Below, piece by piece: positions 1,136 to 21,718 of a DNA stretch of 24,703 nucleotides; the first letter of the stretch is position 1; the number at the start of each line of letters is the position of its first letter. The position numbers and the translations under genes were made by a program. The notes under the pieces were generated by a model that did not search any database, was not told where the DNA came from, and saw only the letters and a list, made by a program, of their open reading frames with translations. The stretch lies in the IMG/VR virus record IMGVR_UViG_2778261164_000008; one strand, written 5' to 3'. The stretch comes from a virus (Duplodnaviria > Heunggongvirae > Uroviricota > Caudoviricetes).

Positions 1136-2812
1136 CTAAGCAACATGTAGTTCATCGTTGGCGGAAGTGGCTGCTTTGCGCTCCTGCTCAATAGCTAGAG
1201 ACTCTCTATATTCTTTCGCCTCTGCAAACATTGTCCAGTGGGCGTTGATGTTCATGTCTTCAATAACTGATTTGATTTCTTTTAAATTTACGTTAAAAAA
1301 CTCTTTTCGTGAGTTAATTTTATTGACCTGCTTTTCGTTGAAAACTTTATGCAGATGGTTTTCTAATGATGGTGCATCATCACTATAAATCATCGCATGA
1401 ACATCGAACGAAAAAGGAACACTAGCATCTCCGAGTTCACGAACACGATCAAGTGGTTCAAGGCGGCGTGTCATTCCAATTTTATATACATCTTCGCCAA
1501 ATGAACCAATATTACTAATGATATAGACGTGGCCTGATCTGGTTTGTTGAGCCATAGAAATAGCTCGTTGATTTTTAGCTTCAGCTTCTTCATATTTTAA
1601 CTGTAGTTCAGCTATTTTTTGCTCTAAAGCTAAGCGTTGTTCTTCATTTGCAAGCATAAGTTCTTTCGTTGCTTTATTTATAGCTTGCTGAATAGCTTTT
1701 TCTTCTTTTTCAGCTTCTTTTATCGCTTTTTCATATTCCCTACGAGCTCTTTCCTCTTCACGAAGCTGTTCTTTAATCCTTCTTTGCTCTTCTTTTTCTT
1801 CGAGCATAATTTCATTAACTGCTACACCCCATTTTAGCTCGTTGAGTCTTGCCTGAAGATAGATGTCACTTATTTTTGCGGATCTAAAGGCAGAGCCATT
1901 GTAATTTACTAGTTGAAATGCATCTTTTATTTCTTGGGAAAGTTTTCCAAAATTGTTGTGTTTGACTTTTGATAAAATACTGTCAACTCTTCCATTGAAG
2001 GCATCCAAAACAAAGTTTATGGCAGTATTACGCCTGTTTTGCTCAACATAATCACACGAAGCAGCTTTATTAGTTTTTATTAATGATTTGGTTAACTCTC
2101 TGGCTTTTTGTAATTCCTTGCCTGCATCTGTAAATTCATAATTTTCTGCCAGCTCATCAAGTACACTACGGTTAGGGATGATCCATTCATCACCATAACC
2201 TTCAATTTTATTTTTCATTGATTTTGCAACTGCTTCATATTTTTCTGCAAACTCTTTAGCTTCATATGCTGAACCAGCAATCTCCTTTGCTCTTTCTTCT
2301 GCATCAGAAATAATTTTTACTGCATTGTCATTAGCATTTGAGATTAGCTCATTTGCTTTATTATTAGCATTATCAAGACGTTCTTTGGCTTTCAGGCGTG
2401 CATCGCGAGCGTCTTTGGTGATTGCTATAGCTTCGCTATTAGCGTTGCTTATTGTCATCTGAGCTTGATAATTTGCTTCGTTTACTGTTTTAGCCGCCTT
2501 AATTTGGGCTTCATCTATTTTTTGCTTGGCTATTGAGTCCGCATTTTTTATCTTATTCTCTGCATCCATTACTGCGCTGTGCAATTCTTCGTATTGCCAC
2601 AATGGTGCTGCTCGCCCTTCAAGCTCTGATAATTCTCGTACGGTCTGTGCTAGTTTTTCTTGATTTTCAATCAGTTGGTTAGAAAGGGCTATGTTGTTAG
2701 CTGTCAGGTTATCTATAGCCGCTTTGTGTTTTTTACTTTGTTTAAATAATATTACAGCTAGAACAGGGGCGAGAAATGCTAATAAGAGTATAACGATGGC
2801 AAATGAATTCAT
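1136..2812 (-). CDS. Membrane-anchored coiled-coil protein with C-terminal T5orf172/GIY-YIG-like domain (DUF4041-like architecture); cargo gene
   Basis: 558-aa ORF, ATG at 2810-2812 with an AAGGA Shine-Dalgarno about 8 nt upstream on the minus strand. Hydrophobic N-terminus (MNSFAIVILLLAFLAPVLAVILF), long K/E/A-rich coiled-coil-like middle, C-terminal GHVYIISN...YKIGMTRRLEPLDRVRELG resembling the T5orf172/MUG113 GIY-YIG-like motif. Visibly AT-rich relative to flanking phage genes. Confidence 0.8.
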   Translation of the reverse strand: MNSFAIVILLLAFLAPVLAVILFKQSKKHKAAIDNLTANNIALSNQLIENQEKLAQTVRELSELEGRAAPLWQYEELHSAVMDAENKIKNADSIAKQKIDEAQIKAAKTVNEANYQAQMTISNANSEAIAITKDARDARLKAKERLDNANNKANELISNANDNAVKIISDAEERAKEIAGSAYEAKEFAEKYEAVAKSMKNKIEGYGDEWIIPNRSVLDELAENYEFTDAGKELQKARELTKSLIKTNKAASCDYVEQNRRNTAINFVLDAFNGRVDSILSKVKHNNFGKLSQEIKDAFQLVNYNGSAFRSAKISDIYLQARLNELKWGVAVNEIMLEEKEEQRRIKEQLREEERARREYEKAIKEAEKEEKAIQQAINKATKELMLANEEQRLALEQKIAELQLKYEEAEAKNQRAISMAQQTRSGHVYIISNIGSFGEDVYKIGMTRRLEPLDRVRELGDASVPFSFDVHAMIYSDDAPSLENHLHKVFNEKQVNKINSRKEFFNVNLKEIKSVIEDMNINAHWTMFAEAKEYRESLAIEQERKAATSANDELHVA

Positions 2813-2832: not shown

Positions 2833-3429
2833 TTAATTCGAGACTATTGTACTTCTTATACAAGCAACCACTTCAATATCAGAAAATGCACATTCAAAGC
2901 TATTCTCTGCTGTTGTAATTTTAATCATTCCTTTAGGAAGCCTTGTGATTTTTCGAATGGAATAGGTTCCGTCGATATTGATTAACCAGTTTCCATCAAG
3001 TACTTCAGAAAATTTTTGATCACAAATGTATGTGACGAGTCCATCCTGAACAACAATTGGTGATGAAAGGTTTGCAGGAAGAAATGATGAATCGAAGACA
3101 TATGAACCGTCTTCAATCATTTTGCCTGCGGCAAGGCGAAACTTAACAAGCTCTTCTGTAGCTGCTGTCAGCGAGCTTTGCTTAAGGCCTTGTCCGGTAG
3201 TTAACCATTTGAGGGAGGTTCCTGTTTCAAGAGCACATTGGATTATCCAGTCAGCAGGAAATGTATCCCGCAAATACCTGTTCGCTAGTGTGCTTTTTGA
3301 TACTTCCAAGTGATCAGCTAAAGCCTGTCGTGTCGTAAAGCCATAGGCTTCGACTAATCGCTCAATCGCAGCCTTACCACCTTTATTGGGATTTATTTTG
3401 ATCTCACTTGGGTACTTTGATGTTGACAT
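2833..3429 (-). CDS. cI: Phage immunity repressor CI (186-type)
   Basis: 198 aa, ATG at 3427-3429. N-terminal segment ...VEAYGFTTRQALADHLEVSKSTLANRYLRD...CALETGTSLKWLTTGQG resembles the 186 CI HTH region as I recall it; C-terminal FECAFSDI also similar. Divergent from apl/cII as in the 186 switch. Confidence 0.8.
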   Translation of the reverse strand: MSTSKYPSEIKINPNKGGKAAIERLVEAYGFTTRQALADHLEVSKSTLANRYLRDTFPADWIIQCALETGTSLKWLTTGQGLKQSSLTAATEELVKFRLAAGKMIEDGSYVFDSSFLPANLSSPIVVQDGLVTYICDQKFSEVLDGNWLINIDGTYSIRKITRLPKGMIKITTAENSFECAFSDIEVVACIRSTIVSN

Positions 3430-5579: not shown

Positions 5580-6433
5580 GCACCATCCTGAAATGGGCGG
5601 GAAATAAAACCGCCATTATGCCAGAACTGAAAAAATACCTTCCTGCTGGCCCGCGACTGGTTGAACCTTTCGCGGGTTCCTGTGCTGTGATGATGGAAAC
5701 GGATTATCCCAGCTATCTGGTTGCGGATATTAATCCTGATTTAATCAACCTCTATAAAAAGGTTGCCGCTGATTGTGAATCGTTTATATCTCGCGCCAGA
5801 GTTTTATTTGAGATCGCAAACAGGGAGGTGGCTTATTACAACATAAGGCAGGAGTTTAACTGCTCAACTGAAATTACTGATTTCATGAAAGCGGTATATT
5901 TCCTGTATCTCAATCGTCACGGTTACCGTGGTTTATGTCGCTATAACAAGAGCGGGCATTTCAACATTCCCTACGGTAATTATAAAAATCCGTATTTCCC
6001 TGAAAAAGAACTTCGCACATTTGCAGAAAAAGCCCAGCGAGCAACGTTTATCTGCGCCAGCTTTGATGAAACGCTGGCGATGTTGAAGGCGGGAGATGTG
6101 GTGTATTGCGATCCGCCATATGACGGTACGTTTTCCGGCTATCACACTGATGGTTTCACTGAAGATGACCAGTATCACCTGGCATCCGTTCTTGAACATC
6201 GGTCATCAGAAGGACATCCGGTCATTGTTTCTAACAGTGACACATCCCTGATCCGTTCGCTGTATCGCAATTTTACTCACCACTATATCAAGGTAAAACG
6301 CAGCATCGGTGTGGCAGCTGGCGAGGGTAAATCAGCAACAGAAATCATTGCTGTTTCCGGGCCGCGCTGCTGGATGGGATTTGATTATTCGCGTGGCGTG
6401 GATAGTTCTGCCGTGTACGGAGTACGTGCATGA
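5576..6433 (+). CDS. dam: DNA adenine methyltransferase (Dam-like, GATC-type N6-adenine MTase)
   Basis: ATG at 5576 with GGAGGT RBS at 5565-5570. N-terminal LKWAGNK...EPFAGS (AdoMet-binding motif) and catalytic DPPY at CDPPYDGTF. Stop overlaps the gene A start (ATGA). Confidence 0.9.
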
Positions 6434-8844
6434 GTCATGCCGATATGAACAACTGCTGCGGCTTTAACGAGGCTGCCGCAGCATTCTCATGGAACAGCCC
6501 GAAAAAGGCCATTAACCCTTATCTGGACCCGGCGGAAGTTGCGCCGGTTTCTACGCTTTCAAACCTGATCACTCTGTACGCTGCCGATAACGAGCAGGAA
6601 CAGTTGCGCCGCGAGGCACTGAGTGATCAGGTCTGGGAGCGTTATTTCTTTAATGAATCACGTGATCCTGTCCAGCGCGAAATGGAGCAGGATAAGCTCA
6701 TTAGCCGGGCAAAGCTGGCGCATGAGCAGCAGCGTTTTAATTCAGACATGGTCATTCTGGCGGACGTCAACGCCCAGCCTTCCCATATCAGCAAGCCGCT
6801 GATGCAACGTATTGAATACTTCAGCAGCCTGGGCAGGCCAAAGGCTTATTCCCGCTATTTACGTGAGACGATTAAGCCATGTCTGGAACGACTGGAGCAT
6901 GTACGCGACAGTCAGCTATCTGCATCTTTTCGCTTTATGGCAAGCCATGAAGGGCTGGACGGCCTGCTGATCCTGCCTGAAATGAGTCAGGATCAGGTGA
7001 AACGCCTGTCCACCCTGGTAGCTGCGCATATGAGTATGTGCCTTGATGCAGCTTGTGGTGATTTGTATGCCACCGATGACGTTAAGCCAGAAGAAATCCG
7101 CAAGACATGGGAAAAGGTGGCAGCGGAAACCCTGCGTCTGGATGTCATCCCACCTGCGTTTGAGCAACTCCGTCGGAAAAGAAACCGCCGTAAACCCGTG
7201 CCCTATGAACTCATTCCGGGTTCGCTGGCGCGTATGTTGTGCGCCGACTGGTGGTATCGGAAATTATGGAAGATGCGTTGCGAATGGCGGGAAGAGCAGT
7301 TGCGCGCTGTTTGCCTGGTCAGCAAAAAAGCATCTCCTTATGTCAGCTATGAAGCCGTGATGCATAAACGTGAGCAGCGCCGTAAGTCGCTGGAGTTTTT
7401 CCGTTCTCATGAACTGGTGAACGAAGACGGCGACACGCTGGACATGGAGGATGTGGTAAACGCCAGCAGCAGCAACCCTGCGCATCGCCGCAATGAGATG
7501 ATGGCCTGTGTTAAAGGTCTGGAGCTTATCGCGGAAATGCGCGGTGACTGCGCCGTTTTCTACACTATCACCTGTCCGTCGCGTTTCCATTCCACGCTAA
7601 ATAACGGCAGACCAAACCCGACCTGGACAAACGCGACGGTAAGACAAAGCAGCGATTATCTGGTCGGCATGTTTGCTGCATTTCGTAAGGCGATGCACAA
7701 AGCCGGGTTGCGCTGGTATGGCGTGCGGGTGGCTGAGCCGCATCATGATGGCACAGTTCACTGGCACCTGTTGTGTTTCATGCGCAAAAAAGACCGCCGT
7801 GCCATCACTGCATTACTGCGTAAGTTTGCCATCCGTGAAGACCGCGAGGAGCTGGGCAATAACACTGGGCCGCGCTTTAAGTCTGAGTTGATTAACCCGC
7901 GCAAAGGAACGCCGACAAGCTACATCGCGAAATATATCAGTAAGAACATTGACGGTCGTGGTCTGGCTGGCGAGATCAGCAAGGAAACGGGTAAATCTCT
8001 GCGTGATAACGCTGAATACGTGAATGCCTGGGCGTCTCTGCATCGTGTTCAGCAATTCCGCTTCTTTGGTATTCCGGGGCGTCAGGCTTACCGTGAACTT
8101 CGCTTGCTGGCTGGTCAGGCGGCAAGGCAACAGGGTGACAAAAAAGCAGGTGCGCCGGTACTGGATAACCCGCGTCTTGATGCCATTCTGGCTGCTGCTG
8201 ATGCTGGTTGTTTTGCCACCTACATCATGAAGCAGGGCGGCGTACTGGTTCCCCGTAAATATCACCTCATCAGAACCGCTTATGAAATCAACGAAGAGCC
8301 GACCGCCTATGGCGATCACGGCATTCGTATTTATGGCATCTGGTCACCCATTGCAGAGGGCAAGATCTGCACTCATGCAGTGAAGTGGAAAATGGTTCGT
8401 AAAGCCGTTGACGTTCAGGAGGCGGCAGCCGACCAGGGCGCTTGCGCCCCTTGGACTCGTGGCAATAACTGTCCCCTTGCTGAAAATTTGAACCAACAGG
8501 AGAAAGATAAATCAGCTGATGGGGACCCCAGAACGGACATTACCAGCATGGATGACAAGGAGTTGCACGATTACCTGCACAGTATGAACAAAAAAGAGCG
8601 CCGGGAACTGGCTGCAAGGTTACGCCTGGTGAAACCGAAACGGCGTAAAGACTACAAACAGCGAATTACAGACCATCAGCGACTGCAGCTCGTGTATGAG
8701 CTGAAGTCCAGAGGATTTGATGGCAGCGAGAAAGAGGTCGATTTACTCCTTCGCGGAGGCAGTATTCCGTCAGGAGCAGGCCTGCGTATCTTCTATCGGA
8801 ACCAGCGTTTGCAAGAAGATGATCAGTGGCGGAACCTGTATTAA
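6430..8844 (+). CDS. A: Replication initiation endonuclease gpA (rolling-circle, P2 A family)
   Basis: 804 aa; contains [10 protein letters not shown] (HxH metal-binding motif of the rolling-circle initiator) and a YIAKYISK tyrosine region; size and position match P2/186 gene A. Confidence 0.9.
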
Positions 8845-9757: not shown

Positions 9758-10576
9758 ATGCGAGTTAATTACGATGTTATTATCAAAAGCGGCGATGATG
9801 AAGTAGATATGGAATACGGTCTCGACACGCTTGCAGGAACTGCAGAGGTTACTTGCTTGTTGGCGGAGGCTATACTTAGGAAAGTAATAATAAAGCGCCG
9901 CTCTCATGTAAATCCTGCAAGGGCTGTACTCAAGAGGAATTTCACCGGTTCTTATGGTCAAAATTTTGACTTGGTTATTAATGATGCTGAACTGGTATCA
10001 GAACTTCGCAAAATATCTAAACCAGTATTTAATGAAGTGATGAGTTTCTTTATTTCGCAATCATTATATTTAGAGAGTCGCGAACTTTCCAATGAAGCGG
10101 AAGAAGTAGTTAAAGGTTTATCGGATATTGAGGATGAGTTGATAGGTCGTATTCGAGCTCCTCTAAAAAGAATGCATGAAATTAATCTCAAAAAAAACTA
10201 TAATATCGAGTTAAACTTTAAACAGCGTGCCCATGATAAGAAAAAAGTAATTGAATTAGATACATCTACTGCAACAAATTTATTCACATCACGTGTTTTA
10301 AAAAAGACTGAAGTAATCAGGGCTTATATTACAAGATTTAATGCTCGCACTGGCAATGGTAGGCTTGTTCTTGAGGGCGAAAATGATACGGTGGCATTTG
10401 GGTTTTATAGCCCCTTACGTGTCATCATTCCAGCTCAAAAAAGAATGATTTCGGCTAACTTACATGTAAATAATCCGCCTTCCACTGCTGGCTATATTTA
10501 TCTTGAACTGACTGTAAGTCGGGTAATAATTAACAGTGGGGAAACTGTGAAATATTTAGTGCATACGGTGCAGTAA
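9758..10576 (+). CDS. Hypothetical soluble protein, gene 1 of AT-rich two-gene cargo cassette
   Basis: 272-aa ORF, ATG at 9758 with AAGGAAAG RBS; AT-rich; no family recognised by eye. Confidence 0.7.
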   Translation: MRVNYDVIIKSGDDEVDMEYGLDTLAGTAEVTCLLAEAILRKVIIKRRSHVNPARAVLKRNFTGSYGQNFDLVINDAELVSELRKISKPVFNEVMSFFISQSLYLESRELSNEAEEVVKGLSDIEDELIGRIRAPLKRMHEINLKKNYNIELNFKQRAHDKKKVIELDTSTATNLFTSRVLKKTEVIRAYITRFNARTGNGRLVLEGENDTVAFGFYSPLRVIIPAQKRMISANLHVNNPPSTAGYIYLELTVSRVIINSGETVKYLVHTVQ

Positions 10577-10577
10577 G

Positions 10578-11324
10578 ATGTTAAAAATAATTTGTTTAGC
10601 TCTCATAATAATAGTTTTGGGGGTTTATTGTATTAAGTTTGGCCCCTGGTACTTAAGTACTCAAGATGCTGATGTTTGGGGGCAATTTGGGGACTTCATG
10701 GGTGGGGTCCTGAATCCTATACTAAGTTTTATCTCGATTTGCCTGCTGATTCGCTCTGTAACTTTACAAGTGCAGTCTAACTCAACATTGAAACAAGAGA
10801 TAAAAAGACAAGAGTTACTTGAAGATTACAAAAAATTTGAAGTGAGGTTTTTCTGTCTAATTGAATCTCAAGATTCTAATTATAATAAATTGCGTATTGT
10901 AATCGGTAATGGAGCAGATAATGATGATGAAAGTAAAGGGGGGGGGACCAAAGAACCTACACTTATTGAGTATAGATCTAATAATGCTATAACTTTCATT
11001 GATGATAACTTGAGCATCTTGGTTAGAGCTGGAATAGAAAAGAAAAGAATCATTGCATGGTTGGAAAGTTTAGATGTTGATGATCATTTTTTCTCTTTGG
11101 TAAGAAGATTTTATCTTTTGGTGAAGTTGATAGATGATAAAGTTGAAAGTGAAAAAAAAGCTGAGCAATATGAGCTGTTAATAAATATGACTGATGAAAA
11201 GCTTTTGACTATGATTGTTATTCTTTGTGAGTATTTTGATTGGGCAAATGTTTTGTATATTAAAAATAGTGGAATCATAGAGCAGGCTAAAATGGATGAC
11301 TATATTTCTAATTATAGAAACTAA
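10578..11324 (+). CDS. Hypothetical membrane protein (2 predicted N-terminal TM helices), gene 2 of cargo cassette
   Basis: ATG at 10578, 1 nt after the upstream stop (translational coupling). N-terminal hydrophobic segments LKIICLALIIIVLGVYCIKF and GGVLNPILSFISICLLI; the rest is charged and soluble-looking. Confidence 0.7.
   Translation: MLKIICLALIIIVLGVYCIKFGPWYLSTQDADVWGQFGDFMGGVLNPILSFISICLLIRSVTLQVQSNSTLKQEIKRQELLEDYKKFEVRFFCLIESQDSNYNKLRIVIGNGADNDDESKGGGTKEPTLIEYRSNNAITFIDDNLSILVRAGIEKKRIIAWLESLDVDDHFFSLVRRFYLLVKLIDDKVESEKKAEQYELLINMTDEKLLTMIVILCEYFDWANVLYIKNSGIIEQAKMDDYISNYRN
10938..10946 (+). repeat. G9 homopolymer tract inside the membrane-protein gene
   Basis: ggggggggg at 10938-10946 (encodes KGGG) inside an otherwise AT-rich gene. 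Confidence 0.9.
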
Positions 11325-11375: not shown

Positions 11376-12407
11376 TTAATTATCTAAAGTGTATTGGGTG
11401 AATGAAATAATTTTTTCGCCCACCCAAGAATTAACTTCTTTTAATCGCCCTTGTAGATAAATTAATTCATTACGTACAAATACCAGACTGGCCTTCTCCA
11501 CATCTCCAAACCCACCTACATTGCTCGGCATAATCCCCATCATTTGCGGCGGCACACGGTGTGCAGCCATCATGTCGTCCCGGCTCACGTTCTTGATGTT
11601 CAGAAATTCATCCTTCGCTGCGACTTCTGACAGCGGGATGATCTGAAGCCCGTCCTTTTTGCCGTTAGGCGAGTACATAAACAGGTTGCGGAAGTTGCCT
11701 GGACCTTTGGCGCTTTTCATCGCGTTGCGGAGGTTGTTCACATCTTCCTGGTTCTGCGCGGCGTCGGTCATATACATGATGAAGCCAGCATGACTGCCGT
11801 TAATGTAATACTTTCGACGGAACAGCGTGGCGGACTCATTGAGCAGGGCGGACGGAATGGCAGAAAGATAGCCGGGCAAGCCGTAGATCTCCTGGTTAAT
11901 GTCCGGTTCCATCAGATGAAAAATGCTGCCTTTCGTGAACTGATATGGCTGGGTTGTCATACCGTATTGCACAAACCAGTAGGTATCCAGGTCTAACCCG
12001 CGTCGGGTGTATTTTGCCAGCGCAGGCTCAAGGGCGATAACTTCACCGAAGCGGTTCGTGCGTTTCTCCAGGTAGGCGTTACCAAAAACCAGATAGTCCT
12101 GCACAAAACGCGAAAAAGCCTGCTGGCTGAGCAGCGGGTGAGGGATGTAGGTGCTGGTCAAAATGTTGCATTTCACCGCAATCGGTGAGCTGTGATGCAC
12201 GGCGGCGCGGAAGGTTCGTGCCAGTCCGTCAAAGCTGACGGGCGGCTCATACCAGCGATCCATCTGTACGCATTCCACATAGTCCAGCAGTTCGCGGCGG
12301 TCCAGAACAGGAACGGGATCACCGAAGCTGAATGCTTCGGCTGAAGTCTGGCTTTTATGCTGGTTCTGGTTCGTCGACGCAGCGCGGTTCTTCTTACTCT
12401 TTCCCAT
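11376..12407 (-). CDS. Q: Portal protein gpQ
   Basis: 343 aa from ATG at 12405-12407, which overlaps the P stop (TGATG); the track ORF starts one codon earlier at a TTG. Size matches P2 Q (~344 aa); position downstream of terminase P on the leftward strand. Confidence 0.9.
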   Translation of the reverse strand: MGKSKKNRAASTNQNQHKSQTSAEAFSFGDPVPVLDRRELLDYVECVQMDRWYEPPVSFDGLARTFRAAVHHSSPIAVKCNILTSTYIPHPLLSQQAFSRFVQDYLVFGNAYLEKRTNRFGEVIALEPALAKYTRRGLDLDTYWFVQYGMTTQPYQFTKGSIFHLMEPDINQEIYGLPGYLSAIPSALLNESATLFRRKYYINGSHAGFIMYMTDAAQNQEDVNNLRNAMKSAKGPGNFRNLFMYSPNGKKDGLQIIPLSEVAAKDEFLNIKNVSRDDMMAAHRVPPQMMGIMPSNVGGFGDVEKASLVFVRNELIYLQGRLKEVNSWVGEKIISFTQYTLDN

Positions 12408-14173
12408 CAAAAAATCTCCACAATATTGCTGGCATTGGCGGACTCGCCCTGCAGCGGTTCGTTAAACAGTGCGTGCATTGTTGCCCAGGCCAGATCGGCA
12501 TGGCTGGCTTCTTCGCTGCGGCTGGCTTCATAGGTCGGGCGGTTGCCGCTGGCGGTGGTGGCGCGACGGATTGCCATGAATGACTGCGCAATGTCGGTGT
12601 GTCCGGCGTCAAATTCCAGGCGGCGGTGACTGATAATGTCGTAGGCCTTGAGTACCAGGGCGTTTTTAACGTTGGGGTTGTAGACAAACTCCCGGACGGC
12701 AGGAAAAAACGCTTTCACGTTCTCGTAAACCCCGTGACCGACGCCGGTCGAGTCGATGCCGATATAGGTCACGTTATACTGTTCGGTCAGTTTTTTGATG
12801 GCGTCAGCCTGGGCGCGGAAGTCCATTCCGCGCCACTGGTGACGCTCAAGAATGCGGAACTTACCGCCCGGCACGACTGGCGGTGCCACCACCACGCATC
12901 CGGCGCTGTCGCCGTTCTGCGTACCTTTTGCCGGGTCATAACCGATCCACACTTCGCGCCAGCCAAACGGGCGCAGGGCCAGTGCATGAAAGTCGGTCCA
13001 GACTTCCCAACTGTCCACCATGCACGCCTGCAGCTCGCTGAGCGGGAACACGGACGCGAGATCGTCCACGAACTCACACATCAGCAGGTTCTGGTATTCG
13101 TCCGGGCTGTATTCCATGCGCAACTGGTCAAGGTCGAACAGGTTACAGCCGCCGCGCACCGCATCTTCTACGGTGACTATCTGGCGGTATTGCCCGTCTG
13201 CGCACAGCAGGCCGGGGGCCAGATTGCTGTGGGACAGGTCGATGTCCACCTTGTCGGCTTTGTTGCGTCCACGGTTGAACAGCGCACCGGACCAGAACGG
13301 ATAAGCACTGTGGGTCAGGCTGGATGGCGTGGAAAAATAGGTTTGTCGCCATTTTTTGTGAATAGCCATACCGGAAGCCACTTTGCGCAGCTCCTGGAAT
13401 TTCGGTATCCAGAAATATTCATCCAGATACAGGTTGCCGTGGTAACTCTGGGCAGTGCGAGCATTGGTGCCGAGGAAATACAGTGTGGCCCCGTTGGGAA
13501 GCACCATCGGATCGCCTTTCAGCTCCACTTCCACTTCTTTGGCGAAGTCGATGATGTACTGCTTAAAGACGTGCGCCTGTGCCTTACTGGCAGAAAGGAA
13601 AATCTGGTTACGTCCGGTTAGCAGGGCGTCAATCAGGGCTTCACGGGCAAAATAGAAGGTCGCGCCGATCTGGCGTGACTTCAGCAGGTTGCGGATGCGG
13701 TTGGTTTTTCCGGCTTCCCACCAGTGACGCTGGTAGTTGAACATGGAGGAATGGAAGATTTCTTCCAGCTTCTCAATCTGTTCATCGGTGAAAACATTCT
13801 TTTCAGGCTGACGGCGCGGGCCTTTGTTGCGGTTGGCGACGTTAGGGTTTAAATCGGCTTCGTTGCCGCCATTGTTAAACTTGCCGATCCGCGCGTGGCG
13901 CTCCGACTGGCGCGCCAGCAGATCAATTTCTTTGAAATCTTTCCCTTCTTTGTGCTCCTTCATAATGAGCTGGCAGTAACGTGCGGCGGTGGTGAGCTGC
14001 ATCTGATCCAGCGGCCCATAGTCACCCCACTTGTCGCGTTTTTTCCAGCTGTGAACGGTTGCAACTTTCTCGCCCAGCATTTCAGCAATGCGGGCGACGC
14101 GGTATCCCTGAAAGTACAGCAGCATGGCCTGCCGACGGGGATCGAGATCTGCGGGTGTCAGTGTGGTGTTCAT
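12407..14173 (-). CDS. P: Terminase large (ATPase) subunit gpP
   Basis: 588 aa, ATG at 14171-14173; size and synteny with Q, O, N, M match P2 gpP (~590 aa). Confidence 0.9.
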   Translation of the reverse strand: MNTTLTPADLDPRRQAMLLYFQGYRVARIAEMLGEKVATVHSWKKRDKWGDYGPLDQMQLTTAARYCQLIMKEHKEGKDFKEIDLLARQSERHARIGKFNNGGNEADLNPNVANRNKGPRRQPEKNVFTDEQIEKLEEIFHSSMFNYQRHWWEAGKTNRIRNLLKSRQIGATFYFAREALIDALLTGRNQIFLSASKAQAHVFKQYIIDFAKEVEVELKGDPMVLPNGATLYFLGTNARTAQSYHGNLYLDEYFWIPKFQELRKVASGMAIHKKWRQTYFSTPSSLTHSAYPFWSGALFNRGRNKADKVDIDLSHSNLAPGLLCADGQYRQIVTVEDAVRGGCNLFDLDQLRMEYSPDEYQNLLMCEFVDDLASVFPLSELQACMVDSWEVWTDFHALALRPFGWREVWIGYDPAKGTQNGDSAGCVVVAPPVVPGGKFRILERHQWRGMDFRAQADAIKKLTEQYNVTYIGIDSTGVGHGVYENVKAFFPAVREFVYNPNVKNALVLKAYDIISHRRLEFDAGHTDIAQSFMAIRRATTASGNRPTYEASRSEEASHADLAWATMHALFNEPLQGESANASNIVEIF

Positions 14174-18780: not shown

Positions 18781-18913
18781 CGGTGATCTGAACGCGTTGC
18801 TGGATGAAACGGAGGCCGCCTGGGCGGTCTGTGCAGACAAAGTGGACATGATTATTGCGTGTCAGGAGCGAAACAGTGAACAAACCACAATCCCTGCGCC
18901 ACGCCCTCAATAA
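18623..18913 (+). CDS. o-spanin (Rz1/LysC-like outer-membrane lipoprotein)
   Basis: GTG start at 18623 in a different frame, beginning inside the i-spanin gene. Signal peptide with lipobox LTLSGC, then a Pro-rich mature part. Confidence 0.7.
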   Translation: MRTRIYAAGLILLCLLTLSGCENVRYSPEVQLTVSGCPRVTPCRLDQATPRTNGDLNALLDETEAAWAVCADKVDMIIACQERNSEQTTIPAPRPQ

Positions 18914-19307
18914 AGCAGTGCCTTATGTCCGCAATAACCCGGACAAACTGCATCTGTTTGTGGATAACGGTTCGCTGGTTGCCACGGGGGCCAGCTCCAT
19001 GTCATGGGAGTACCGCTATACCCTGAACGTGGTGATTGAGGATTTCAGCGGCGACCAGAATCTGCTGATGGCCCCGGTTTTGCTGTGGCTGCGGGATAAT
19101 CAGCCTGATGCCATCAATAACCCGGCGTTACGGAAAAAGTTATTCACCTTTGAGGTGGATATTCTGCGCAATGATGTCTGTGATATCAGCCTTAACCTGC
19201 AACTGACGGAGCGTGTGCTGGTCAGCACTGATGGCAGTGTGTCGAGTGTTGAAGCTGTAGCGGAACCCGATGAACCTGAAGAAATGTGGACGGTGAAACG
19301 TGGCTGA
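18876..19307 (+). CDS. R: Tail completion protein gpR
   Basis: Likely GTG start at 18876 with AGGAGCG RBS at 18863 (the track ORF begins at a TTG at 18855). ...SLRHALNKAVPYVRNNPDKLHLFVDNGSLVATG resembles P2 gpR. Confidence 0.8.
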   Translation: MNKPQSLRHALNKAVPYVRNNPDKLHLFVDNGSLVATGASSMSWEYRYTLNVVIEDFSGDQNLLMAPVLLWLRDNQPDAINNPALRKKLFTFEVDILRNDVCDISLNLQLTERVLVSTDGSVSSVEAVAEPDEPEEMWTVKRG

Positions 19308-19746
19308 ATTGCAGAAGGTGGACGACTGGTTGAGTGCCTTGCTGGCGAATCTGGAGCCAGCCGCAAGAAGCCGTATGATGCGCCAGCTGGCGCAAGAACT
19401 GCGCCGGACACAGCAGCAGAACATCAGGATGCAGCGCAATCCAGATGGCAGTAGTTATGAGCCGCGCAGAGTAACAGCACGCAGCAAAAAGGGGCGCATC
19501 AAACGTCAGATGTTTGCAAAGCTGCGCACCAAAAAATACCTGAAAACTGCCGCCAGCGCCGATTCTGCCAGCGTGCAGTTTGAAGGTAAGGTGCAGCGCA
19601 TTGCCCGCGTTCATCACTACGGCCTGCGTGATCGTGTTAGTCGTAAGGGGCCGGAGGTACGTTATGCTGAGCGGCGGCTATTGGGTTTCAACGATGAAGC
19701 TACTCTTCAAATTAAAACAATTTTATCTAGTTACTTAATGGGGTGA
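19300..19746 (+). CDS. S: Tail completion protein gpS
   Basis: 148 aa, GTG start at 19300 overlapping the R stop; size and synteny match P2 gpS (~150 aa). Confidence 0.85.
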   Translation: MAELQKVDDWLSALLANLEPAARSRMMRQLAQELRRTQQQNIRMQRNPDGSSYEPRRVTARSKKGRIKRQMFAKLRTKKYLKTAASADSASVQFEGKVQRIARVHHYGLRDRVSRKGPEVRYAERRLLGFNDEATLQIKTILSSYLMG

Positions 19747-19838
19747 AGATTCACGCTTTTGCTAGCTTCTACAAGGTTTTATGCTTCTAAACACTGTATG
19801 TTTAATTTGACATATAACTATTTGTACAAGCGGTGAGT

Positions 19839-21062
19839 ATGAAAAAGCAAGATGAGTCCCCCAAAGCTGATAAATCAAATTTAGATAAAAGTGAGTCTGA
19901 ACCACCAAAAGCGAACTCTATGGCAGATGCCATGGCCATAGCGGCAGAGGTTGCTACGACAGCAACGTCAGTTCAAACATCAACCTTTGCAATTATCGCG
20001 GATTTTCTACGTTCAGGTGGTATAGAAAAACTAACTTCAAATGCTATCAAAAATTTAGAAATAAAAGTAAAGGGCCATTCTCAAGCGACAAGAACTACGG
20101 TATTGAGGAACCTGAAGACCTCTTTCAAAGAGGAGAATTTAGTTCTTGTTTTAGGTGCTGGCATTTCTTTAGATTACAGCATACCAACATGGAGTGAATT
20201 ATTAAAGCGGCTATTGGCAAGAGCTTTGGATGATAAAAATGAAAATCAGAAAATGGTATCGGTTTTGTTTAATGAGGTTTTCGGTCCGAACGCACTCATA
20301 GCAGCCAGATATCTAAAACTACACTTTGATGGTATTAATACTCCCTTGGAAAAAGAAATTCAGCATGTTTTGTATGAATATTATCAGGAGGAAGAAAGCA
20401 GTACATTGAAAGCAATCAAGAAATTGTGCATATCGGCAGGCAAGTCACCAGGTCTAGATTCCGTTATTACATATAACTATGATGATATTTTGGAACAGAC
20501 ATTAACTAGAGCTGATGTTGGTATAAAGTATAAGGTGATTTCAAAGACGGGGCAGCATGCAAAAAATGATGAACTGCCGATCTACCATGTGCATGGCTAT
20601 CTCCCATTGCAGGGGAAAGTTGAACTCGATGACACGCTAGTCCTTTCTGATGAAAGCTATCATAGGCAATACATGGATTTATACCATTGGAGCAATATGG
20701 TTCAGTTGAATAAATTCAAAGATGGAAATTGCCTGTTTGTTGGTCATTCCTTTACAGATCCAAACCTCAGAAGGTTGATGGATACAGCCAAAAAACTTAG
20801 AGGGAATGATTCTAAACCTCATTATTTAATTAAGTGTAGACATTCGAAAGAAGATGTGATTGCTAATATTCAAAGAATTGTTAGTGACTCAAGAAATGGA
20901 TTTGATAATAAACTGAATATTAATGAGGATGCAATCGCGACCTCTCTTTTACAGACAGTGCATACTTTTGAAGAAATCGATGCTAATTCATTTGGCGTGA
21001 ATGTTATTTGGATCGACTCTTACGATGAGATTGCACCAATACTTAATGATCTAACACAATAA
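19839..21062 (+). CDS. SIR2-like (SIR2_2 family) protein, candidate NAD+-consuming defence effector; cargo gene
   Basis: ATG at 19839 (the track ORF begins two codons earlier at a GTG). After a ~100-aa Lys/Ser/Ala-rich N-terminus: LVLVLGAGISLDYSIPTWSELL (Rossmann GAG), LPIYHVHGY (candidate catalytic His) and CLFVGHSFTDPNLRRLM, all characteristic of prokaryotic SIR2-like domains. AT-rich; inserted between S and the V late promoter. Confidence 0.8.
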   Translation: MKKQDESPKADKSNLDKSESEPPKANSMADAMAIAAEVATTATSVQTSTFAIIADFLRSGGIEKLTSNAIKNLEIKVKGHSQATRTTVLRNLKTSFKEENLVLVLGAGISLDYSIPTWSELLKRLLARALDDKNENQKMVSVLFNEVFGPNALIAARYLKLHFDGINTPLEKEIQHVLYEYYQEEESSTLKAIKKLCISAGKSPGLDSVITYNYDDILEQTLTRADVGIKYKVISKTGQHAKNDELPIYHVHGYLPLQGKVELDDTLVLSDESYHRQYMDLYHWSNMVQLNKFKDGNCLFVGHSFTDPNLRRLMDTAKKLRGNDSKPHYLIKCRHSKEDVIANIQRIVSDSRNGFDNKLNINEDAIATSLLQTVHTFEEIDANSFGVNVIWIDSYDEIAPILNDLTQ

Positions 21063-21073
21063 TCTCCCTAAGT

Positions 21074-21091
21074 TGTGCCAGAAATGGCACA
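21074..21091. promoter_or_regulatory. Ogr/Delta-type late activator box (TGT-N12-ACA) for the V operon
   Basis: TGTGCCAGAAATGGCACA, a near-perfect palindrome, about 50-65 bp upstream of the V start. Confidence 0.6.
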
Positions 21092-21139
21092 GCTTTAAAT
21101 CCTATCCTAATGACGGCAGCATTTGGCAATCTAATTGCC

Positions 21140-21718
21140 ATGAACGCTCAACTAACAGAAATCATGCGCCTTATCACCAATCTGATCCGCACTGGTGTAG
21201 TCACCGAAGTGGACCGGGAAAACTGGCTTTGTCGGGTGAAAACGGGCGACCTTGAAACCAACTGGATTAACTGGCTGACACTGCGCGCGGGCAAATCGCG
21301 CACCTGGTGGAAACCGTCTGTGGGTGAGCAGGTTGTGCTGTTCAGCCTTGGCGGCAATCTGGAAACCGCGTTTGCCCTGCCTGCGGTCTACTCAAACCAG
21401 TTTCCGCCACCTTCAGACTCTGAGGACGGTAACGTGACGGAATACCCAGACGGTGGCTGGTTTGAATACGAACCCGCCACCGGGCGCTGGTATGTCAGGG
21501 GCATCAAATCCATGGTCATTGAGGCCACTGACAACATCACCCTGAAAACCAGTGAGTTTGTACTGGAGGCTGACCGCACGCGCATTAACAGCGAAGTGGT
21601 GATCAATGGTGGCGTTACCCAGGGCGGCGGTGCAATGAGTTCTAACGGAATCGTGGTTGATACGCATCAGCATACAGGCGTCCTGAAAGGCGGTGATACC
21701 ACCGGAGGCCCGGTATGA
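21140..21718 (+). CDS. V: Baseplate assembly/spike protein gpV
   Basis: Start taken as ATG 21140 (MNAQLTEIMRLITNLIRTG...); the ATG at 21110 is an alternative. WWKPSVGEQVVLFSLGGNLETAF and C-terminal HQHTG...GGDTTGGP match P2 gpV as I recall it. Confidence 0.85.
   Translation: MNAQLTEIMRLITNLIRTGVVTEVDRENWLCRVKTGDLETNWINWLTLRAGKSRTWWKPSVGEQVVLFSLGGNLETAFALPAVYSNQFPPPSDSEDGNVTEYPDGGWFEYEPATGRWYVRGIKSMVIEATDNITLKTSEFVLEADRTRINSEVVINGGVTQGGGAMSSNGIVVDTHQHTGVLKGGDTTGGPV

Follow-up and report, generated by a model that had tools for sequence, protein, structure and literature searches.

SIR2 NADases, enzymes that hydrolyse nicotinamide adenine dinucleotide (NAD+), are common effectors of bacterial immunity. 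To our knowledge, every characterised SIR2 immune NADase is coupled to a sensor, be it a SLOG domain, the C-terminal domains of the DSR proteins, HerA, a prokaryotic Argonaute (pAgo), a STAND nucleoside triphosphatase (NTPase) or KomA/B. Here we describe a SIR2 gene of the SIR2_2 (SIRim) type in the Caudoviricetes record IMGVR_UViG_2778261164_000008, whose whole stretch of 24,703 nucleotides (nt) is called the window below. The gene (19839..21062, + strand) encodes 407 amino acids (aa) plus the stop codon and lies between the tail completion gene S and the baseplate spike gene V. On balance, and with a probability that we place just above even, we read it as a compact, stand-alone SIR2 NADase carried as abortive-infection cargo by a P2/186-like Escherichia coli prophage.

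The best sequence match among solved structures is ThsA, the SIR2-SLOG effector of type I Thoeris (PDB 6LHX, 8BTO/8BTP, 7UXT and 8WC0). A profile of 40 homologues of the 407-aa protein aligns to the full SIR2 domain of Bacillus cereus ThsA (6LHX, residues 11-278) with 44 bits, a remote similarity when set against the >250 bits found among family members. The catalytic Asn and His of both proteins coincide and the fold match has a probability of 1.0; NAD+ glycohydrolase chemistry is probably common to the two, and activation by assembly may be so too. Unlike ThsA, the protein has no SLOG domain, the alignment ending at residue 278 of the 476 of ThsA, which corresponds to the C-terminus of our protein, and unlike in Thoeris there is no ThsB/TIR gene nearby and a variable N-terminal tail is found instead. 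Type I Thoeris was rejected on these grounds, there being neither a SLOG domain nor an adjacent TIR gene. The best structural match is KomC of the Kongming system (a 264-aa SIR2-only NADase; PDB 8ZSF and 9XVC), with a target template-modelling score (TMt) of 0.85, a root-mean-square deviation of 2.8 and an identity of ~19-20%. KomC, too, consists of a SIR2 domain alone, without a fused sensor, and its active form is a helical filament; it depends, however, on the deaminase KomA and the HAM1-like KomB for the supply and sensing of deoxyinosine triphosphate. Neither gene is present here, and no KomA/KomB-type gene is adjacent to our gene or stands beside those homologues for which neighbours are listed, so that Kongming was rejected in spite of the KomC-like fold. 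The 407-aa protein is also ~140 residues longer than KomC and has an N-terminal tail and insertions.

DSR1 and DSR2 are also single-gene SIR2 NADase defences, of ~1000 aa, and the N-terminal SIR2 domain of DSR2 matches our structural model; the DSR proteins, however, have large C-terminal sensor domains that bind the phage tail-tube protein, whereas the 407-aa protein has none. The NCBIfam Dsr1 model gives a weak match of 29.6 bits (cut-off 1400), covered only at profile positions 19-246, and membership of the DSR group was rejected because of this N-terminal-only match and the length of 407 aa. A SIR2_2-type effector domain is common to Lamassu (LmuA-SIR2), SIR2-HerA, SPARSA (SIR2-APAZ/pAgo) and Avs5, but these need the LmuB/C SMC proteins, the HerA helicase, a short pAgo and a STAND NTPase, respectively, none of which is encoded here, and none of these partners recurs beside members of the family in the 80 loci described below. 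The best PADLOC matches are the LmuA model with a SIR2 effector (E 9e-21) and the ThsA model (E 2e-20), and in each of them only the SIR2 part is covered. Lamassu was rejected because the LmuA match spans model positions 4-236 of 433 and no SMC-type neighbours are found, and SIR2-HerA (Nezha)/PD-T7-2 because there is no HerA-like helicase gene and the PADLOC SIR2 models reach only E 1e-5 to 1e-2.

The assignment of the gene to the SIR2_2 (SIRim) group is firm. The open reading frame (ORF) ends at 21062 on the + strand and starts with GTG at 19833 or ATG at 19839; the conserved MKK beginning of the alleles and the RefSeq model WP_050491431.1 ('SIR2 family protein'), which is identical to the 407-aa product, support the ATG, which we prefer. 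SIR2_2 (PF13289) is the sole Pfam domain in the protein, with 73.1 bits against a cut-off of 24.5 (E 3.2e-20), which bears out the SIR2-family match predicted in an earlier reading of the bare sequence (the original prediction). The catalytic core (residues 86-407; 20094..21059, + strand) comprises a Rossmann fold and a helical subdomain and runs to the C-terminus of the protein. It carries the GAGIS NAD-binding glycine motif (residues 106-110; 20154..20168, + strand), in which G106, G108 and S110 are invariant in the 40 homologues, and two family-invariant residues that are predicted to be catalytic, namely Asn213 in TYNYDD (20475..20477, + strand), aligned to N112 of ThsA (TTNYD), and His252, the second His of YHVHGY (20592..20594, + strand), aligned to H152 of ThsA (YKMHG). 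All three motifs quoted in the original prediction are found where they were expected (GAGIS at 106-110, YHVHGY at 249-254 and FVGHSFTDP at 300-308), and its candidate catalytic His in YHVHGY can now be specified as H252, with N213 as its partner. Invariance over the 40 homologues extends to GAGxS, N213/D215, H250/H252 and DPNLRR, and the helical subdomain has a strongly conserved, family-specific motif, FGPxxLIAARYL.

An AlphaFold2 model of the protein has a predicted template-modelling score (pTM) of 0.71, with the predicted local distance difference test (pLDDT) mostly at 80-90 in the core and below 50 at residues 1-81. In a Foldseek search against the PDB, KomC/KomBC (best TMt 0.85), ThsA and DSR2 accounted for all the matches among the best 50 listed, each with a probability of 1.0, so the NADase-type fold that had been expected is indeed what is modelled. 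Sequence and model together thus describe a defence-type ('SIRim') SIR2 core of ~320 residues plus a predicted unstructured tail of ~85 residues, and nothing else.

Since SIR2 chemistry permits other reactions, the protein could be an NAD-dependent deacylase or ADP-ribosyltransferase with a specific macromolecular target and not a bulk NAD+ hydrolase. One allele bears the RefSeq name 'SIR2 family NAD-dependent protein deacylase', and the conserved helical subdomain with its FGPxxLIAARYL motif could be a substrate-binding surface. A canonical sirtuin deacylase (CobB/Sir2) was nevertheless rejected: a Pfam search of the protein gave no match to the canonical SIR2 family PF02146 at E <= 0.1, its only three cysteines (197, 298 and 333) form no CxxC and hence no zinc-binding Cys4 module, and no canonical sirtuin is among the best 50 Foldseek PDB matches listed, the top ones all being defence NADases. 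Further, the characterised SIR2_2 members ThsA, DSR1/2 and KomC are NADases (PMC12700824). We therefore regard a deacylase or ADP-ribosyltransferase as improbable, with about one chance in ten left to it.

The remaining part of the protein is a hypervariable, low-complexity N-terminal region (residues 1-85; 19839..20093, + strand), which may serve as a regulatory or sensor tail. Over these 85 residues, enteric alleles share 26-46% identity, versus 80-83% in the core, and across the family of 40 homologues the region differs in both length and sequence. A 151-aa ORF 5' of the S. baltica homologue was considered and discarded, being unrelated to the N-terminal tail of our protein. A profile search of 1.84 billion representative proteins returned 928 clusters at E <= 1e-30, most of them of 340-515 aa; a large subgroup of 430-515 aa has an N-terminal domain of 120-160 aa without a Pfam match, and the same core (>250 bits to the family profile) also ends the larger proteins P0121, P0236, P0261 and P0212. 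The domains fused N-terminally to the core are LRR-Roc-COR (ROCO/NLR-like; 923 and 1011 aa), Mrr_N and TIR_2, the last in the TIR-SIR2 fusion P0212 (TIR_2 E 5e-13). The core thus appears to behave as an effector module that takes sensor domains at its N-terminus, and because relatives bear sensor domains fused there, regulation of our protein is most likely to act on its N-terminal 85 residues.

The original prediction held that the gene has neither an extra domain nor an adjacent partner, and both points stand. SIR2_2 alone was found, with the ThsA alignment stopping at the protein's C-terminus; the neighbours are S and V, and homologues move singly, with no recurring neighbour family in 80 species. 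No TIR/ThsB, HerA, LmuB/C or KomA/B gene adjoins the SIR2 gene. A partner hidden in the flanks was excluded by the spacers of 92 nt to S and 77 nt to V, the first of which (19747..19838, + strand) leaves no room for another gene, together with the lack of any Rfam family in these flanking spacers and of flanking direct or inverted repeats typical of a transposon-like insertion. The mobility of the gene on its own is clearest in Vibrio, where a homologue of 52% identity is a one-gene cassette of a chromosomal super-integron (loci L007, 5826-7384, and L009, 4024-5395). Two strains share a near-identical attC-like site directly 3' of the stop codon of this homologue but differ in the cassettes downstream, and the array has Vibrio cholerae repeat (VCR)-type repeats of ~125 nt. 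We also clustered all ORFs within 3 kb of the gene in 80 loci from 80 species of many phyla, and no ORF family occurred in more than 5 loci; the recurring neighbours were generic (two-component systems, ABC transporters, SDR and LysR).

Three of the 80 loci have small TIR genes beside SLOG-less SIR2 family members (L152, 3739-4194; L167, 1212-1679; L168, 1797-2999). The L152 gene matches TIR_2 with E 8e-31, and that of L167 is directly upstream, ending 23 nt before the SIR2 gene. Such neighbours may form a Thoeris-like pair whose effector does without the ligand-binding domain that is usual there. Our gene might, by extension, encode an orphan effector that is insufficient alone and needs an unlinked partner, e.g. 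a ThsB-like TIR protein encoded by the host or by a different mobile element. Its closest solved sequence relative, ThsA, is the signal-activated effector of Thoeris, and the TIR genes of these three distant loci and the TIR-SIR2 fusions point the same way. Set against this, no ligand-binding domain, whether SLOG, Macro or another, is present in the protein, the remaining 77 loci have no TIR neighbour, no TIR gene occurs anywhere in the annotated prophage of E. coli SC475, which has the identical SIR2 gene, and the gene moves singly, both as an integron cassette and with different co-cargo in each prophage. We give the unlinked partner a small probability only, and the stand-alone reading is well supported by these comparisons.

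The position of the gene provides the main contextual evidence. The original prediction had S followed almost directly by V throughout the P2 family. In a survey of 79 IMG/VR prophages whose gpS is 87-91% identical to that of the window, this tight junction was seen in 62, where the S-V gap is 69-78 nt, as it is in Escherichia phage 500465-1; it does not extend to the other 17 relatives, in which the site is filled, nor to P2 itself, which has the non-essential orf30 there on the minus strand. Filled sites are of 749-2239 nt at a guanine-plus-cytosine (GC) content of 0.31-0.35 (examples are L029, 4438-6677; L079, 4447-5868; L081, 4438-6340; L050, 4438-5436; and L016/L018/L020/L021). Their cargo includes matches to PARIS AriA (E 6e-40) and AriB (E 3e-24), to PDC-S59 (E 2e-197) and to an ApeA-like HEPN protein (E 1e-13), besides products with no database match, namely a 304-aa protein with an Rx4H-like motif and four different predicted membrane proteins of 231-259 aa. 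P2 Orf30 itself gave no Pfam or PADLOC match. The P2 orf30 locus resembles ours in its S-V position, its AT-richness, its dispensability and its exchange for unrelated genes in different phages; Orf30 and the cargos of the 17 relatives, on the other hand, are encoded on the minus strand and show no sequence relationship to the SIR2 gene, which is absent from the 80 closest IMG/VR gpS loci.

The S-V slot thus reads as the known orf30 variable locus and as a hotspot for horizontally acquired cargo that includes known defence systems. Because the slot holds such systems, the SIR2 gene is probably defensive too, and this is the strongest contextual argument for our interpretation. That orf30, Z/fun and tin/old are the three regions where P2-like phages bear foreign genes has been described (PMC3091744; PMC6823313). 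The two main surveys of P2 hotspots deal with the tin/old and Z/fun loci (PMC9122126; PMC9519451); a term search of the former gave no mention of gpS, gpV, orf30 or a 'third hotspot', and the hotspot passages retrieved from the latter name tin/old and Z/fun and no other locus. The variability of the orf30 slot is therefore already known, and a description of its defence content was not found in our literature search, which was limited.

The SIR2-like gene that the original prediction had placed between S and the V late promoter is real, with gpS before it and the predicted V promoter (P_V) dyad and gpV after it. On the left, gpR (18855-19307; E 4e-47) is followed by S (19300..19746, + strand; 148 aa; Pfam Phage_tail_S, E 2.4e-41), the left flank of the cargo slot, whose product is 87-91% identical to gpS of Wadgaonvirus/Klebsiella P2-like phages. 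V, the right flank (21140..21718, + strand; 192 aa; Pfam Phage_base_V, E 8e-18, plus Apex), has its start codon set from RefSeq and from alignment with empty-site relatives. GC content is 0.34-0.40 over 19700-21050 and 0.53-0.60 in the flanks on both sides, with a mean of 0.37 in the module versus 0.50 in the remainder of the window, in agreement with the AT-rich insertion that had been predicted. Its extent of ~1.3 kb had been set somewhat too small: the GC fall starts near 19650-19700, and the last 19 codons of S (19687..19746, + strand) are AT-rich and linked to the cargo. Because gpS residues 1-129 are near-invariant in the alignment of relatives while residues 130-148 vary by cargo type, this 3' end is the left recombination joint, and the exchanged module spans ~19687-21139, taking in the 3' end of S and a P_V region that is specific to the cargo. 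The latter has a TGT-N12-ACA dyad (21074..21091, + strand), predicted by its sequence to be the site of an Ogr/Delta-type late activator at the V promoter. The dyad centre is 57 nt 5' of the V ATG, and the P_V site annotated in P2 is 55.5 nt 5' of the V transcription start, a geometry that matches. In RNA folding the same dyad is also an 11-bp hairpin right behind the SIR2 stop codon (-24.6 kcal/mol, z -3.45).

Scans for a sigma-70 promoter on the + strand, standard and relaxed, recognised none in the 200 nt upstream of the SIR2 gene in the window allele. A TTGACA at 19807 was considered as a -35 element and discarded for want of a usable -10 element, and a 'TTTGA' box shared in the allele alignment was discarded because it lies between the ribosome-binding site and the ATG in the other allele. 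No terminator was found after S, either by scanning or by RNA folding, which gave no hairpin followed by a U-tract. Because the gene has no recognisable promoter of its own and no terminator after S precedes it, late-only transcription is possible. The gene may otherwise be expressed from a weak AT-rich promoter, or, more speculatively, it may be made only when late promoters fire, including by trans-activation from an incoming P2-like phage or P4 satellite.

These features could also be those of a late gene that serves the phage in its own lytic cycle, through host shut-down, lysis timing or interference with NAD-dependent host functions or satellites, and that gives no protection to the lysogen. 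Besides the missing promoter and terminator, the gene has the late-gene orientation, all other cargo in the slot being antisense to late transcription, and it is directly 5' of the P_V activator site. The distribution of the family speaks against such a role, with the site empty in 62 of the 79 closely related phages. A tblastn search of 50,697 phage records found no close homologue and a single weak match (32% over 30% of the query), and the BFVD viral structures contain no fold match at E <= 0.001; homologues are mostly outside phages, in integron cassettes, genomic islands and the chromosomes of many phyla, and that of Priestia adjoins GmrSD in an integrase island. Further, a heavily decayed P2-like remnant next to ybjL in Enterobacter (L012-L015, 1-7500) has the SIR2 gene intact. 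The remnant also keeps intact the CI repressor, a KAP NTPase, an FRG-domain protein and gpS; its portal gene, gpA and gpV are fragmentary, its tail genes and ogr are gone and most head genes are lost, and it gives the impression of a prophage pared down to cargo genes. An intact SIR2 gene where the tail genes and ogr are missing speaks for an advantage to the host that is independent of the phage lytic cycle. We consider a purely lytic role improbable, on a par with the unlinked partner.

Within the enteric bacteria, the gene was found in 8 of 5426 complete E. coli genomes, four with the identical gene and four with a ~75%-identical allele. Alleles are also present in Enterobacter, Citrobacter and Raoultella, and every allele with context examined is in the S-V slot. 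In the core (residues 86-407) of the enteric alleles, pN is 0.10-0.15 and pS is ~0.8 and saturated, with an amino acid identity of 80-83%, values that point to strong purifying selection. All alleles examined have an intact reading frame, apart from the copy of E. coli EC05, which is disrupted by an insertion sequence (IS). A non-functional hitchhiker, i.e. decaying AT-rich foreign DNA with no present role, would fit the rarity of the gene in E. coli, the disrupted copy and the lack of a recognisable promoter, but it would not fit frames that are otherwise intact, a strongly selected core with saturated synonymous sites, or catalytic residues that are invariant across phyla in a family of so many clusters, and we think it very unlikely indeed.

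The prophage carries other AT-rich or defence-related genes. A 558-aa gene (window positions 1139-2812, minus strand), flanked by the integrase (1-1053) and the CI repressor (2833-3429), matches PADLOC PD-Lambda-1 (E 2e-120) and has DUF4041 and T5orf172/MUG113 domains; judged by this homology, it is a second defence cargo of the prophage. An AT-rich two-gene cassette encoding proteins of 272 and 248 aa (9758-10576 and 10578-11324, both + strand) occupies the classical tin/old hotspot, with replication gene A (6430-8844) on its left and the portal gene (11376-12410) on its right. Pfam and PADLOC gave nothing for this cassette beyond a marginal ZorB/MotB-like stretch (E 3e-4), and we regard the gene pair (9758-11324) as an uncharacterised candidate system. 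In the SC475 prophage, the A-Q hotspot is instead filled by retron Ec78 (reverse transcriptase, PtuA-like ATPase and PtuB HNH; L103, 14196-17445), and int and CI are separated by two hypothetical genes. Because SC475 pairs the identical SIR2 gene with other co-cargo, the cargo of different slots appears to assort independently.

Several points weigh against a stand-alone defensive NADase. PADLOC and NCBIfam see only the SIR2 part of the protein, with modest scores, and no defined system fits. No sensor domain that would detect infection is recognisable in the 407 aa, and the TIR partners and fusions seen in a minority of relatives make dependence on other factors possible. The gene may be transcribed only with the late operon, which would be atypical of a defence gene expressed in the lysogen, and it is on the + strand whereas every other S-V cargo seen, in the 17 relatives and in P2 orf30, is on the minus strand. 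Its presence in only 8 of 5426 complete E. coli genomes makes it rare, and the diverged EC05 copy (76% over 39% of the query; L003, 4313-6718, in the S-V slot) is split by an ISKpn26-family element. The EC05 prophage has large internal deletions as well. Finally, our limited literature search found no report of NADase activity or phage resistance for this family, and no description of the family under validated SIR2-only defence, SIR2 integron cassettes or the S-V hotspot.

With these points considered, the stand-alone NADase remains the explanation that we prefer. The candidate is plausible, tractable and widespread, and it is of an expected effector type. Enrichment near defence genes has been reported for the SIRim clade as a whole, which is predicted to be immune (bioRxiv 10.1101/2024.09.18.613514), and filament-dependent activation has been described for ThsA, Avs5 and FAM118B (PMC12700824). 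For our protein we infer NADase activity and an anti-phage phenotype, together with its trigger, its expression in the lysogen and its activation through assembly. By analogy with ThsA, KomC, DSR2, Avs5 and FAM118B, the SIR2 protein would be inactive in the uninfected lysogen, and a competing phage would switch it on, probably by inducing it to assemble into oligomers or filaments, which is how ThsA, KomC, Avs5 and FAM118B behave. The active protein would then hydrolyse NAD+ with Asn213 and His252, which would stop phage replication and abort the infection, and the regulatory input would most probably act at the N-terminal end.

A broader proposal, which we put forward tentatively and judge rather less probable, joins two statements: that the SIR2-only family is the smallest autonomous NADase immune module, with its input through the N-terminal tail or through the wiring of the P2 late operon, and that orf30 is a third P2 defence hotspot. 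By the first route, the fast-evolving, disordered tail would serve, for example, as a bait or autoinhibitory segment, and a phage factor that removes or binds it would allow filament assembly; by the second, an Ogr/Delta-type activator of a superinfecting P2-like phage or P4 satellite would turn on synthesis of the SIR2 protein. The RefSeq SIR2 annotation, the prediction of SIRim immunity and the variability of orf30 are already known, and a description or test of the SIR2-only family was not found in the same limited search.

If true, the stand-alone reading would show how a SIR2 enzyme of 407 residues is restrained and triggered without a separate sensor, and would provide a very compact model of activation by assembly. 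The orf30 slot, with its known defences and several AT-rich genes that have no match, would be a cheap place to seek new systems. Because the family is large and widespread, and seemingly unstudied, a single experiment would serve to annotate many genes.

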